From IMG/VR virus record IMGVR_UViG_2645727673_000004: a stretch of 5,217 nt of DNA, one strand, 5' to 3'. The DNA comes from a virus. Taxonomy: Duplodnaviria; Heunggongvirae; Uroviricota; Caudoviricetes. Below are positions 964-5,115 of this stretch, in pieces; within the stretch, counting starts at the first letter, position 1, and every line of letters starts with the position of its first letter. Made by a program: the position numbers and the translations under genes. The notes below the pieces were generated by a model. It had not been told where the DNA came from, made no database searches, and worked only from the letters and a program-made list of their open reading frames with translations.

Positions 964-1257
964 ATGAAAAAAATGTTGTTTTCTGCCGCTCTGGCAATGC
1001 TTATTACAGGATGTGCTCAACAGACGTTTACTGTTGGAAACAAACCGACAGCAGTAACACCAAAGGAAACCATCACCCATCATTTCTTCGTTTCGGGAAT
1101 TGGACAGGAGAAAACTGTTGATGCAGCCAAAATTTGTGGCGGCGCAGAAAATGTTGTTAAAACAGAAACCCAGCAAACATTCGTAAATGGATTTCTCGGT
1201 TTTATTACTTTAGGCATTTATACTCCACTGGAAGCGCGTGTGTATTGCTCACAATAA
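964..1257 (+). CDS. bor: Bor outer-membrane lipoprotein (lambda bor family, serum-resistance lysogenic-conversion protein)
   Basis: Translation MKKMLFSAALAMLITGCAQQTFTVGNKPTAVTPKETITHHFFVSGIGQEKTVDAAKICGGAENVVKTETQQTFVNGFLGFITLGIYTPLEARVYCSQ (97 aa) matches lambda Bor nearly residue for residue as I recall it. Lipobox is LITGC. It is convergent with Rz, as in lambda. The ORF-track start at 916 adds 16 non-homologous residues; ATG 964 chosen. Confidence 0.9.
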   Translation: MKKMLFSAALAMLITGCAQQTFTVGNKPTAVTPKETITHHFFVSGIGQEKTVDAAKICGGAENVVKTETQQTFVNGFLGFITLGIYTPLEARVYCSQ

Positions 1258-1288: not shown

Positions 1289-1750
1289 CTATCTGCACTG
1301 CTCATTAATATACTTCTGGGTTCCTTCCAGTTGTTTTTGCATTGTGATCAGCCTCTCTCTGAGGGTGAAATAATCCCGTTCAGCGGTGTCTGCCAGTCGG
1401 GGGCTGGTTGCATTATCCACGCCGGAGGCGGTGGTGGCTTCACGCACTGACTGACAGACTGCTTTGATGTGCAACCGACGACGACCAGCGGCAACATCAG
1501 CGCGCAGAGTTTCATTTTCAGCTTTCGCATTGGCTAATTCTCTCGAGTACTTTGCATCGAGTGCAGCAACATCACGCTGACGCTGCTGCATGTCAGCGAT
1601 AGTGGCGATCGCCTGCTTCAGCTCACTGACTTTTTTATCACGCTGTTCTTTGTAGGCGATGGCGTTATCACGGTAATGATTGACCGCCCACGACAGGCAG
1701 ACGATGATGCAGATAACCAAAGCATAAATAATCGCGGCGACTCTGCTCAC
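1289..1750 (-). CDS. Rz: Rz i-spanin (inner-membrane spanin subunit)
   Basis: Translation [39 protein letters not shown]...[62 protein letters not shown] is near-identical to lambda Rz. I place the start at GTG 1748-1750, which overlaps the R stop (GTGA) and has GGGGGA 7 nt upstream; this gives 153 aa as in lambda. The ORF-track start at 1765 is a TTG with no SD. Confidence 0.85.
1348..1530 (-). CDS. Rz1: Rz1 o-spanin (outer-membrane lipoprotein), fully embedded in Rz in the +1 frame
   Basis: 60-aa [63 protein letters not shown] has lipobox LVVVGC and a proline-rich stretch, and is near-identical to lambda Rz1. It lies entirely inside Rz. Confidence 0.85.
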
Positions 1751-2280
1751 TGCTCTATCCCCCAACAGGCTAATGCGCTTTCCTGGTCACGACGAATAAC
1801 CTGTCCATAGCAGTTATTTGAACGTATGCGGCAATCGCGCCCACCATCTTTTATCCACCAGCGAATCGCCTCGCATGCGCCCTTACGATCACCGGCATTC
1901 AGCCGCTTATAAAACGTCGACGGGAAACACTTACCGGGGCCAATGTTATAGGGACAGAATGACGCTATACCCGCTTTTTGTGGTTCGGTCAGTAGTACTT
2001 TAATATTGCGCTCCACCCATGCCAGCGCCTTATCACGCTCAATGGCGTTGACCTGGTCGCATTTTTCCTTCGACAGTTTCATACCGGGAAAAACGGGTTT
2101 TCCATCCACCATCGTGGCACCCCGACAGATGGTCCAGATGCCGGACCCATCGCGGTATGCCGTTGTGTGGTTACCTTCTTTTTCATCCAGAAACTGGTCG
2201 AGAATATCAGGCGCGGGCGCACCGACGGCAATCAGTGCCAGAACGGCAGCCGACAGGCCGTATCTGATTTTTGCGTTCAT
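1747..2280 (-). CDS. R: Endolysin, glycoside hydrolase family 24 (T4-lysozyme-like) with N-terminal SAR/signal-anchor segment
   Basis: 177-aa ORF with ATG start. N-terminal weakly hydrophobic Gly/Ala-rich segment [18 protein letters not shown] is followed by the catalytic E-x8-D-x5-T pattern ([16 protein letters not shown]). It matches the endolysins of Stx/lambdoid phages that I recall, and its stop overlaps the Rz start. Confidence 0.9.
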
Positions 2281-2343: not shown

Positions 2344-2694
2344 TTAAGGTTGTGATTCCGGAGGAGTCTTCAGAGAACCAGTAATTCTTCCCGGTAGCTT
2401 TCCTTTGTAGGTTATCCATACATTCTGCGCCTCTAAAATTACGGGGCGCTTTTCCGGCGACTGCTCATCCCCTTCACATAACCCGGCAGCAACATCCAGG
2501 AAGACCTGTCTGATACTCATTCTGGCTGCTGCCTCATAAAACTCCAGCGCGGCACCTTCAACACGGTCCAGCGAGATGTCCAGGTCAAAAATTTCACCGT
2601 CAAAGCGTTTTTTGTCCCGTAACGCTAAAGTTACCGTAACTTTATTCTCAAAATTGCGGATCCCTTTCACAATCAGTTCATAGTTTTGAGTCAT
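2344..2694 (-). CDS. DUF1327-family protein (YdfR-like) located between holin and endolysin
   Basis: 116-aa ORF MTQNYELIVKGIRNFENKVTVTLALRDKKRFDGEIFDLDISLDRVEGAALEFYEAAARMSIRQVFLDVAAG... resembles E. coli Qin-prophage YdfR, which lies between essQ and rrrQ (from memory). ATG at 2694 has GGGGAGAG upstream and sits 4 nt after the holin stop. Confidence 0.7.
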   Translation of the reverse strand: MTQNYELIVKGIRNFENKVTVTLALRDKKRFDGEIFDLDISLDRVEGAALEFYEAAARMSIRQVFLDVAAGLCEGDEQSPEKRPVILEAQNVWITYKGKLPGRITGSLKTPPESQP

Positions 2695-2698
2695 TGAA

Positions 2699-2914
2699 TT
2701 ACTCTCCCCGTGCCGCCTTACGACGGTCCTCTCTGATTTTGAAATACAGGTTAGTCAGATATGTCAGCAGCCCAAACAGCAGACTCCCCAGCACGCCTAT
2801 TGCCGCCCACTGAGACGGGGAAACCCTGTCCAGCAACTGCAGGAACCAGTAGCCCGTTCCCACCGCTGACGTGGTGTATGACACACCTGTTGTGATTTTT
2901 TCCATCTGGTCCAT
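2699..2914 (-). CDS. S: Class II holin / pinholin of the phage 21 S family, with dual-start motif (antiholin from Met1, holin from Met4)
   Basis: Translation [71 protein letters not shown] (71 aa) closely matches S21 as I recall it. Two in-frame ATGs at 2912-2914 and 2903-2905 give the classic dual start, with GGGAGA upstream. The ORF-track N-terminal extension to 3019 begins at GTG and contains a terminator, so it is rejected. Confidence 0.85.
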
Positions 2915-2978: not shown

Positions 2979-3221
2979 TCTGATAACTCATGCAAGCGTC
3001 TCAGACGATCCACTGACACTACCGGTGAGTTTAACGATACCTTCCATTTGACTGGCTCACTTTTTATGATGATGCCGGTGTATTTATCTCCAGCACCAGA
3101 CTTTCTATCTCAACGCCATACGTTGCATTTTTGGTAATATCCGTCAGCGTCAGTGCATTTAGTCCCACTGCCAGACCGTCTTTTATGGTCTGGAATGCCG
3201 GGCCAGTACGATGACGTAGTA

Positions 3222-3410
3222 TCACTCCGGCTCAGTTGCACCACTGACCACCACATCACCTTCTGCTGCAATCGCCTGCATCAGGGTATAAGGGGTTATG
3301 GCCACCGGACTACCAAACGGCTGCCAGCCCTCTTTCAGTTTATGTGTCAGCTTTTCCGCAAGATCTGACGGCGGCGCCGCCCTGACAACATCATAGTGTT
3401 TAAATGCCAT
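3222..3410 (-). CDS. Small DUF1737-like protein (62 aa)
   Basis: ORF MAFKHYDVVRAAPPSDLAEKLTHKLKEGWQPFGSPVAITPYTLMQAIAAEGDVVVSGATEPE carries the EGWQP-G motif that I associate with DUF1737 small proteins. ATG 3408-3410 is preceded by GGTGGAAAG; an alternative ATG at 3425 (MVERT...) has no SD. Confidence 0.55.
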   Translation of the reverse strand: MAFKHYDVVRAAPPSDLAEKLTHKLKEGWQPFGSPVAITPYTLMQAIAAEGDVVVSGATEPE

Positions 3411-3670
3411 GGTTCTTTCCACCATCTGAAAAATAATTCTTTAAAATACCAGACATGTAACACAGAAAAAACACAAAACCATACCTTAAATAGAAACCTG
3501 ATCATCAAGCAGATATGCATGGATAAACTACAAGACGAGATATAAACCACCCTGCATTTAAATAAACAATAAACAACATCAGAAAAATAATTCTGCTCTA
3601 TGGTTTATATTCAAAAATATCATTTATACTTTTCAGAACATCACCAGCAAGGCATAAACAAGGAAGCTAA

Positions 3671-4006
3671 ATGAAGTGGATTGTAATTGATACAGTTATC
3701 CAGCCATCATGCGGAATATCTTTTTCAGTCATATGGAGTAAAGTAAAATTAATAATCTGGTATCAATCGGATGCTTTCTTACCTCCTGAAAGTATATTTA
3801 CACTGACTCACACAGGTATCATGCTCAATAACAAAGTGCTACCTGTAACCATTTACAACGTAGTACCATTCAATAAAACATTCTGGAATTTAATCAAAAA
3901 CAGCCAGGAATGCCCTACAAATACAGATAACGTATTGAATGAATGCTTTAATAACCGTTGCATTCTGCAAATATGTCCTTATGGACTAAAACAACAAAGT
4001 CCATAA
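3671..4006 (+). CDS. Hypothetical protein, AT-rich orphan ORF (111 aa) opposite to the late operon
   Basis: ATG at 3671 is preceded by AAGGAAG (3660-3666). A 111-codon open frame in strongly AT-rich sequence is unlikely by chance because stop codons are AT-rich. Protein is [111 protein letters not shown]; no family recognised. Confidence 0.45.
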
Positions 4007-4027
4007 GGAGTTTACTCACATCTGACA

Positions 4028-4062
4028 AAATCAATATAAACAGCCCCTCCGGAGAGGGGCTG
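4028..4062 (-). terminator. Rho-independent terminator on the late strand (3' end of repeat unit R1)
   Basis: Perfect 9-bp GC-rich stem CAGCCCCUC-(4-nt loop)-GAGGGGCUG at 4041-4062, followed on the minus strand by UUUAUAUUGAUUUUGUC. There is no U-tract on the plus side. Confidence 0.6.
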
Positions 4063-4276
4063 GAGAGTGGCGCTATGTGCCATTGCATGGTGCCGGGTGC
4101 CTCCCGGTGAATTCAGTACCAGCACCTGAATCCGCGATTATCCCATATACCTACTCGCTGATTACCCCTCCGCACAGGGGGATTCACCATGCGAAATTTT
4201 TTAACAAACTTCCCGCCGGCCAGACAATAATCGCCAGCCTGAATTATGAGCAACGTGGCATTTTACGGGAAAACTG
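4041..4276. repeat. Repeat unit R1 of a diverged ~240-bp direct repeat (paralog of 4505-4746)
   Basis: Aligns with 4505-4746 along its whole length with several indels, roughly three-quarters identical by eye. Shared blocks include the 20-mer AGCCCCTCCGGAGAGGGGCT, GCATGGTGCC-GG-GCCTCCCGGT-AATTCAG, GGGGGATTCACCATGCG and TTTTTAACAAA...CCAGACAAT. Confidence 0.75.
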
Positions 4277-4283
4277 TTTTCTG

Positions 4284-4310
4284 CAGTAAAAAGGCCCGCC
4301 GGAGCGAGCC
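4284..4310 (-). terminator. Imperfect GC-hairpin terminator on the late strand, upstream boundary of R1
   Basis: GGCCCGC-CGGA-GCGAGCC at 4293-4310 has a 7-bp stem with one mismatch and the same CGGA loop as the repeat hairpins, followed on the minus strand by UUUUUAC. Confidence 0.4.
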
Positions 4311-4496
4311 TGGAAGGATAGCGGTCATGTGATGCCGGTTTCCCGGTAACTCAGCATCGGTATCTGAGTCAACGTTTTCTCTACTGGGTCATTTCCGATA
4401 CGTTCCGCCTTCCGGCAGACTTTCATCACGTCAGAAAATATAGCACCCTGAGTAACAGGACAGTACTCAGAATTCAGGAAACTGTGACACATCCTG

Positions 4497-4524
4497 CACA
4501 GAAAAGCCCCTCCGGAGAGGGGCT
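4497..4524 (-). terminator. Rho-independent terminator on the late strand (3' end of repeat unit R2)
   Basis: Perfect 8-bp stem AGCCCCUC-(4-nt loop)-GAGGGGCU at 4505-4524, followed on the minus strand by UUUUCUGUGC. Confidence 0.55.
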
Positions 4525-4746
4525 GAAGTATAGCCTAATTTCTGTCTGTCGCATGGTGCCAGGGGCCTCCCGGTAAATTCAGCCTGTCTACTGAATTTGC
4601 ATGTTCTCTGGATCATACACTTTGCCAGATGCCCCGCCGCTGAGGGGGATTCACCATGCGATGTAATTTTTAACAAATTCTCCGGCAGCCAGACAATCAT
4701 CAAGCTGTGGAATTGTGAGGTATTTAAAAATTTCAACGGGTAACTG
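4505..4746. repeat. Repeat unit R2 (paralog of 4041-4276)
   Basis: See R1. Same block order and orientation, and the same palindromic 20-mer at its left end. Confidence 0.75.
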
Positions 4747-5039: not shown

Positions 5040-5115
5040 TGGTGGCCCTTGCTGGATTTGAACCAGCGACCTGGCGATTATGAGTCGCTCGCTCTCACCA
5101 CTGAGCTAAAGGGCC
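5040..5115 (-). tRNA. tRNA with CAU anticodon, most similar to tRNA-Ile2 (ileX/ileZ-like, lysidine type); may be annotated tRNA-Met
   Basis: Minus strand GGCCCTTTAGCTCAGTGGTGAGAGCGAGCGACTCATAATCGCCAGGTCGCTGGTTCAAATCCAGCAAGGGCCACCA is 76 nt and folds as a canonical cloverleaf: 7-bp acceptor stem, GCTC/GAGC D-stem, anticodon loop CUCAUAA, T-arm GCTGG-TTCAAAT-CCAGC, encoded CCA. It differs at only a handful of positions from E. coli ileX as I recall it. Confidence 0.9.

Follow-up and report, generated by a model that had tools for sequence, protein, structure and literature searches.

IraL is a fourth RssB anti-adaptor and was described in the uropathogenic E. coli strain CFT073 (Hryckowian et al., mBio 2014, PMC4045071). 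It raises both the level and the stability of RpoS in log phase, and in two-hybrid assays it binds RssB, namely the N-terminal domain (PMC4045071). Since 2014, then, iraL has been a known gene with a name, a mapped position and a characterised function. K-12 IraM (YcgW, b1160), an RssB anti-adaptor induced by Mg2+ starvation through PhoP, has four C-terminal cysteines in common with IraL, and its gene is likewise AT-rich. However, the DNA upstream of K-12 iraM is unrelated to that of iraL, K-12 IraM does not have the QQSP tail, and IraM binds both domains of RssB whereas IraL binds the N-domain only (PMC4045071). Structural work on IraM shows it bridging the two domains of RssB; the 4-5-5 face of the receiver is blocked and RpoS cannot engage.

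K-12 iraM (positions 6681–7004 of the K-12 locus inspected, L002) is found in the chromosomal order bluR-ycgX-iraM, beyond the icdC pseudogene; its neighbour ycgX encodes a DUF1398 protein. The same gene order is also present in Shigella flexneri and other E. coli. Because the gene is outside the annotated e14 feature, K-12 iraM is not strictly 'on e14' as PMC4045071 states.

The classical lambdoid morons (bor and lom of lambda; stxAB) resemble iraL in that they are self-contained cargo in or beside the late operon, are expressed from the prophage and benefit the lysogen. IraL is unlike them in acting on host proteolysis and sigma-factor control and not at the cell surface or as a toxin, and iraL, unlike stxAB, is oriented against the late transcript. 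PmrD (PF11183), the connector that protects phospho-PmrA, is similar to the IraM family in being a small beta-barrel that binds a receiver domain; its target, however, is PmrA, while that of IraL is RssB.

We compared these systems with a 5,217-nt stretch of viral DNA (hereafter the window, which means the whole stretch analysed). The window corresponds to the late region of a lambdoid prophage in which the late genes are on the minus strand, and its features are the following.

964–1257, plus strand: bor/iss, a second opposite-strand moron (Pfam Lambda_Bor, E 4e-30; RefSeq, increased-serum-survival lipoprotein Iss)
1289–1765, minus strand: Rz/Rz1
1747–2280, minus strand: lysozyme
2344–2694, minus strand: YdfR/DUF1327
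2699–2914, minus strand: P21-type holin
3222–3425, minus strand: DUF1737 ORF (Pfam DUF1737, E 4e-17), the 5' remnant (3225–3410) of a nanS-p (DUF1737-SASA) esterase gene
3426–3670, plus strand: AT-rich (GC 0.30) probable iraL upstream regulatory region, lying between the divergently transcribed iraL and nanS-p remnant
3559–3575, minus strand: PhoP-box-like direct repeat TGTTTA-TTGTT-TATTTA (TGTTTATTGTTTATTTA), one mismatch to (T/G)GTTTA-N5-(T/G)GTTTA
3604–3609, plus strand: probable −35 hexamer TTTATA, with T in place of the C of CFT073 (TTTACA) at 3608
3625–3630, plus strand: −10 hexamer TATACT, from the motif and from homology to the CFT073 promoter
3638, plus strand: putative transcription start site, placed by homology to the CFT073 5'-RACE end
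3660–3666, plus strand: ribosome-binding site AAGGAAG, 4 nt ahead of the ATG
3671–4006, plus strand: probable iraL coding sequence, 111 codons with an ATG start, RssB anti-adaptor of the IraM family
3976–3987 and 3998–4009, plus strand: arms of a perfect 12-bp hairpin with a 10-nt loop, enclosing the stop codon (4004–4006)
4032–4220, minus strand: STnc100 sRNA copy 1 (Rfam RF02076, 132.5 bits), its terminator hairpin (4041–4062) facing the 3' end of iraL
4285–4460, minus strand: STnc100 copy 2 (30 bits, below the RF02076 gathering score of 47), terminator 4292–4311
4496–4689, minus strand: STnc100 copy 3 (138 bits), terminator 4505–4524
5040–5115, minus strand: tRNA with a CAT anticodon (ARAGORN, tRNA-Met; RefSeq, tRNA-Ile, the ileZ type of lambdoid phages)

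The initial annotation of this DNA had singled out 3426–4006 as an AT-rich stretch bearing an orphan gene opposite to the lysis genes, and most of that description was borne out. The GC content is 0.322 in this stretch against 0.493 in the remaining window (0.298 for 3426–3670 and 0.339 for the ORF), and the lowest-GC 581-bp segment of the whole sequence begins at 3424. The 111-codon ORF, the AAGGAAG and TATACT motifs and the five cysteines (residues 14, 81, 92, 97 and 102; there are also four tryptophans, at 3, 22, 30 and 72) were all present where claimed. The genes for holin, YdfR/DUF1327, lysozyme and Rz are all on the strand opposite to the ORF, and the tRNA and the repeats are on its far side. 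A chance ORF was ruled out by shuffling, since only 4 of 5000 mononucleotide shuffles of 3426–4030 gave an ATG-ORF of at least 111 codons (mean longest, 42), and by the dN/dS ratios given below. We also looked for a minus-strand gene beneath the ORF; the only frame of at least 40 aa there is a 46-aa ORF overlapping the 3' end.

The claim that the protein belonged to no recognisable family did not survive the protein-level searches. The NCBIfam model of IraM (NF007393) scored 162 bits against a cutoff of 121, with residues 1–110 placed on model positions 1–113 of 114. Using phmmer, residues 1–78 aligned without gaps to PDB 8twd (IraM residues 1–78) with an E of 8.7e-32. The protein is identical to K-12 IraM at 67 of 107 residues (63%; gap-free) and to IraL (c1429) of CFT073 at 109 of 111 residues, the two changes being I25V and T98I. 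These matches rule out an orphan gene; what had been taken for one is 98% identical in protein sequence to the characterised CFT073 IraL and belongs to the IraM/IraL/RssC family.

The 2014 study defined the iraL lineage by a nucleotide identity to CFT073 iraL of at least 95% in the coding sequence and at least 96% upstream, and reported that the upstream region is at least 96% conserved among iraL strains (PMC4045071). The window copy is 98.8% identical to CFT073 iraL in the coding DNA and 96.3% identical (9 differences) in the 245 nt upstream, so that it falls within the iraL lineage on both counts; its nucleotide identity to iraM-type genes is only ∼71%. In a megablast search with the 631-bp region, we found iraL-type DNA in 1446 of 5426 complete E. 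coli genomes, and among the 100%-identical matches listed (strain M217 is one such genome) the ORF carries the PGAP label 'anti-adapter protein IraM'. More than a thousand genomes have the gene annotated as IraM in RefSeq. On the strength of these sequence comparisons, we consider it highly likely that the ORF is iraL, a lambdoid-prophage moron encoding a 111-aa RssB anti-adaptor. An AlphaFold2 model built from a 16-sequence alignment (mean pLDDT 37.5, pTM 0.23) was too poor to confirm the fold. The value of this check lies in the removal of a false 'orphan' and in the precise placing of the gene as a Q-to-holin moron.

A different assignment, a PmrD-like connector acting on a response regulator other than RssB, would be suggested by the precomputed Pfam labels, which are PF11183 (PmrD) for all the homologues (P0001–P0020), and by the published structure of IraM, the fold of which superposes on PmrD at ∼1 Å. 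These labels disagree with our hmmscan against Pfam-A, in which the ORF protein and six homologues matched no family and gave no PmrD match at E values up to 10. The binding of IraL to RssB and its stabilisation of RpoS (PMC4045071) also argue against this assignment, as does the conservation of all the residues that contact the N-domain of RssB. We regard a connector for another regulator as very improbable and retain the assignment to iraL.

We compared the ORF protein with the contact residues of IraM, namely clusters I–III and Pro66 of Brugger et al. 2023. All five residues of cluster I, which contact the receiver domain of RssB (I4, I6, W22, K26 and I42), are identical. In cluster II, which contacts the C-terminal domain of RssB, three of five are identical (T13S and L75I being the changes), and in cluster III two of four (H63N and I64V). 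Pro66 is kept, making 11 of the 15 IraM contact residues identical, and the four substitutions are all among the nine IraM residues that touch the C-terminal domain and linker of RssB. The predicted pattern of contacts fits the reported N-domain-only binding of IraL. For the window allele, we infer both binding to RssB and slowed degradation of RpoS by ClpXP.

The cysteines C81, C92, C97 and C102 (C-P...C-x4-C-x4-C-P; window 3911–3976) are invariant in the 16-sequence family alignment; one Stx-phage variant has C92G. These C-terminal cysteines may form a metal site or disulfides. The published IraM structure left out the C-terminal tail on account of its lower conservation and its flexibility.

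The reading frame is preserved among the relatives. Neither an indel nor a stop codon interrupts the 107-codon alignment of iraL with K-12 iraM and two Stx2-phage variants. The dN/dS ratio between iraL, iraM and the Stx-phage variants is 0.10–0.17; dS is saturated, but the synonymous bias is clear. This shows purifying selection on the iraL-family protein. Frameshifts, stops and a lack of synonymous bias, which the initial annotation had named as evidence against a real gene, were thus not found across these relatives.

The promoter could be placed by comparison with CFT073, where 5' RACE of iraL gave an mRNA 5' end of ACATCACCAGCAAGGCATAAACAAGGAA... (PMC4045071). From position 3638, the window reads ACATCACCAGCAAGGCATAAACAAGGAAG, and its 5' UTR agrees with the published one as far as the ribosome-binding site; CFT073 iraL and the window copy have the same −10 and 5' UTR. 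The TATACT hexamer, which had been picked out from the letters as −10-like, is situated 7 nt upstream of 3638, and because the published 5'-RACE start corresponds to this position, it is very probably the real −10. The C-to-T change at 3608 lowers the match of the −35 hexamer to TTGACA from 5/6 to 4/6. Other differences from CFT073 are A/G at 3637 and changes beside the ribosome-binding site at 3666 and 3668. A −35 point mutation was reported in the second iraL copy (iraL2) of JJ1886 and in other strains, and its expression was left open by the authors (PMC4045071); T3608 is presumably equivalent to that mutation. The exact 61-nt promoter allele was found in 284 genomes. With its 15-nt spacer, the iraL promoter escaped a simple sigma-70 scan of the window.

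In a lysogen, iraL would be transcribed from its own sigma-70-type promoter, with the −10 at 3625–3630 and the start near 3638. This transcription would oppose the Q-dependent late operon and would end at the hairpins around 3976–4062, either that at 3976–4009 or the STnc100 terminator at 4041–4062. IraL would then bind the response-regulator-like adaptor RssB. Because RssB bound by IraL could not deliver the stress sigma factor RpoS to ClpXP, RpoS would be stable even in growing cells, and the prophage would in this way rewire the general stress response of the host.

How strongly the window allele is expressed bears on this scheme. The gene may be iraL and yet be transcriptionally weak or silent in this allele, through the −35 change and/or through H-NS acting on the 30%-GC upstream region, so that little stabilisation of RpoS would be seen in laboratory conditions. 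The change at 3608 leaves the −35 at 4/6 when the 15-nt spacing is already poor, the promoter is absent from the output of the simple scan, and the upstream GC is 0.30. The K-12 relative points the same way, as work of Battesti from 2012 is said to have found repression of iraM by H-NS. The mRNA of CFT073 iraL is up by 1.6 log2 at 37 °C versus 23 °C, which is compatible with a thermally relieved silencing, and the authors of the IraL study had similar doubts about JJ1886 iraL2 (PMC4045071). On the other hand, the 61-nt promoter allele has been retained in the 284 genomes, the ORF is intact, and CFT073 iraL, with upstream DNA 96% identical to that of the window, is expressed in log phase (PMC4045071). 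Because of this expression in CFT073, iraL is not generally silent, and of the possible H-NS silencing proposed in the initial annotation the sequence shows the AT-richness only. We consider a weak or silent allele unlikely, and an expressed iraL remains the preferred reading. It could matter whether this widespread −35 variant is an expressed one. IraL was also found to rise in a fur mutant of CFT073.

The PhoP-box-like repeat is situated 63–79 nt upstream of the putative start and at −112 from the ATG. It is the sole match to the box with at most one mismatch in the window, where 0.13 are expected, and at least one such match occurred in 25 of 200 shuffles (12%). The box recurs in three Stx2-phage variants at this site (−112/−113 from the ATG) and with this orientation, perfect in two of them and with one mismatch in the third; these are homologous promoters and not independent occurrences. 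The site is inside the best-conserved block of the promoters of iraL and the Stx2-phage variants, which are otherwise ∼70% identical. We used K-12 iraM as a positive control and observed PhoP-box matches with two mismatches only, no more than expected by chance and at other distances; because of this result the motif test is of low power. We therefore treat the candidate PhoP box at 3559–3575 as a lead only, and a literature search found no experimental link between iraL and PhoP.

If this lead were followed, PhoP/PhoQ would control iraL through 3559–3575 (in response to low Mg2+, acid or antimicrobial peptides), in the manner of K-12 iraM, rather than the gene being simply constitutive. The dependence of iraM on PhoP, the uniqueness of the one-mismatch box in the window and its recurrence in place and orientation within the best-conserved promoter block of the Stx2-phage variants are in line with such control. 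So is the lack of a well-matched −35 at the optimal distance, a usual trait of activator-dependent promoters. The 25 chance matches in 200 shuffles of a T/A-rich region, the shared ancestry of the boxes, the distance of ∼70 nt to the start site and the two-mismatch result for the K-12 control weaken the case, and IraL acts in unstressed log-phase cells (PMC4045071). On balance, PhoP/PhoQ control of iraL appears possible and rather doubtful, and simple expression from the iraL promoter is the reading that we carry forward. A functional box would give lysogens of either kind, iraL or Stx2, a way of stabilising RpoS in response to PhoPQ signals (low Mg2+, acid, host peptides); resistance to stress and acid could then be affected, and perhaps prophage induction.

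The surroundings of the gene agree with those of the characterised iraL. The CFT073 iraL locus has the same arrangement as the window, with Q, tRNA-Ile, DUF3927, the opposite-strand iraL, DUF1737, holin, YdfR and lysozyme. It differs from the window in having three tRNA genes between Q and iraL as well as an IS200, where the prophage of the window has one tRNA and no IS200. The tRNAs in this interval are Ile-Arg-Arg in CFT073 and in Stx phages. In all four of the iraL loci inspected (CFT073, M217, E. albertii and another E. coli), the gene is on the opposite strand, with Q/tRNA on one side and the holin gene on the other. The suggestion that the cargo occupies the site equivalent to that of stx is upheld by these four loci in the Q-to-holin slot and by sister variants that directly adjoin stxB2. 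The view of the gene as AT-rich cargo acquired independently, a moron that has a promoter of its own and runs antisense to the late operon, is supported as well; the gene has the marks of a phage moron, namely a prophage location, its own promoter and hairpins, and a GC content of 0.32 against 0.49. A member of the family is present in only 46 of 50,697 phage records, and most lambdoid phages have none.

On the 5' side of iraL is the nanS-p remnant, which is transcribed divergently from it. The remnant is identical at 49 of 55 residues to the N-terminus of a 645-aa esterase of an Stx2c prophage, and PGAP flags it as incomplete. A 53-aa ORF that follows the DUF1737 ORF corresponds to the tail of NanS-p, residues 610–640 (both within 3064–3425, minus strand). 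As judged from these matches, nanS-p is here a gene with a large internal deletion, of which the first 55 and the last ∼30 codons are left.

On the 3' side, the tandem STnc100 copies are the elements that had been noted as 'repeats', each of which ends in a GC-rich terminator hairpin. The convergent pairing of an iraL-family gene with STnc100 was also observed at three further loci (L004, L005 and L006), from Stx2 phages and from E. albertii. STnc100 has been connected with the PasD sRNAs in a 2026 preprint, which does not mention IraM or IraL. The RNA fold of 3960–4075 has an energy of −41.4 kcal/mol (z −5.6), and the hairpin at 3976–4009 may be a 3' stabiliser or a weak terminator. Its 3' arm is inside a ∼30-nt stretch that is missing from the Stx2-phage variants, which stop at codon 107. 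The four extra residues of IraL (QQSP) and the hairpin at the stop codon accompany a TAA-to-CAA change and this ∼30-nt stretch (window 3976–4030).

The convergence of iraL with the Q-dependent late transcript and with STnc100, conserved in all the phage-borne lineages inspected, would also be expected if the locus worked at the RNA level, with antisense transcription from 3638 hindering the expression of the late and lysis genes and the ORF being incidental. The strong purifying selection on the protein (dN/dS 0.10–0.17, no indels) argues against this view, and K-12 iraM acts as a protein outside any late operon. As IraL moreover binds RssB as a protein (PMC4045071), we hold a purely RNA-level role to be highly unlikely, and keep to iraL as a protein-coding anti-adaptor gene.

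Related genes are present in the Stx2 phages. In Stx2c, Stx2a and Stx2k/e-type prophages (L005 5016–5339, L004 5113–5436 and L013 3206–3541), the gene that directly follows stxB2, on the other strand, belongs to the IraM family and encodes a product 74–76% identical to IraL. Taken together, the other IraM-family lineages (proteins 59–76% identical) are in the same slot and the same orientation, two of them immediately downstream of stxB2. An IraM-like gene was found in 41 Stx2 phage records, mostly unannotated, and a literature search turned up no work on the function of the Stx-phage copies.

The IraM-like genes of the Stx2 phages (phages 2851 and 1717, the O157:H7 Stx2c/Stx2a prophages and the Stx2k/e-type phage of STEC409) encode proteins 74–75% identical to IraL and share with iraL the slot, the antisense orientation, the convergent STnc100, the divergent nanS-p and a homologous promoter block with the PhoP-box-like repeat. 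They are unlike iraL in encoding 107 aa, in having no 3' hairpin insertion, in having TATAAT as the −10 and in adjoining stxB2. The neighbours recur in most loci, with STnc100 converging on the 3' end and nanS-p diverging from the 5' end, and every phage-borne lineage examined has this layout in antisense orientation within the Q-to-holin slot. Tentatively, Stx2-type lambdoid phages may have carried the IraM-family genes, paired with STnc100, as a conserved cargo module for a long time, possibly a PhoP-responsive one, rather than as an occasional passenger; we put this forward as a possibility and not as the expected outcome. If the family is PhoP-regulated, a link would follow between prophage carriage and the RpoS-dependent stress resistance of pathogenic E. 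coli.

A scan of species-representative genomes gave seven loci only, in Escherichia, Shigella and one Citrobacter, and did not reach rssC of Salmonella. One lineage of the family (P0007, 70% identical; L015 4001–4321) was observed outside a phage late region, beside an IS21 element, a gene for a GGDEF protein and a PerC-family gene.
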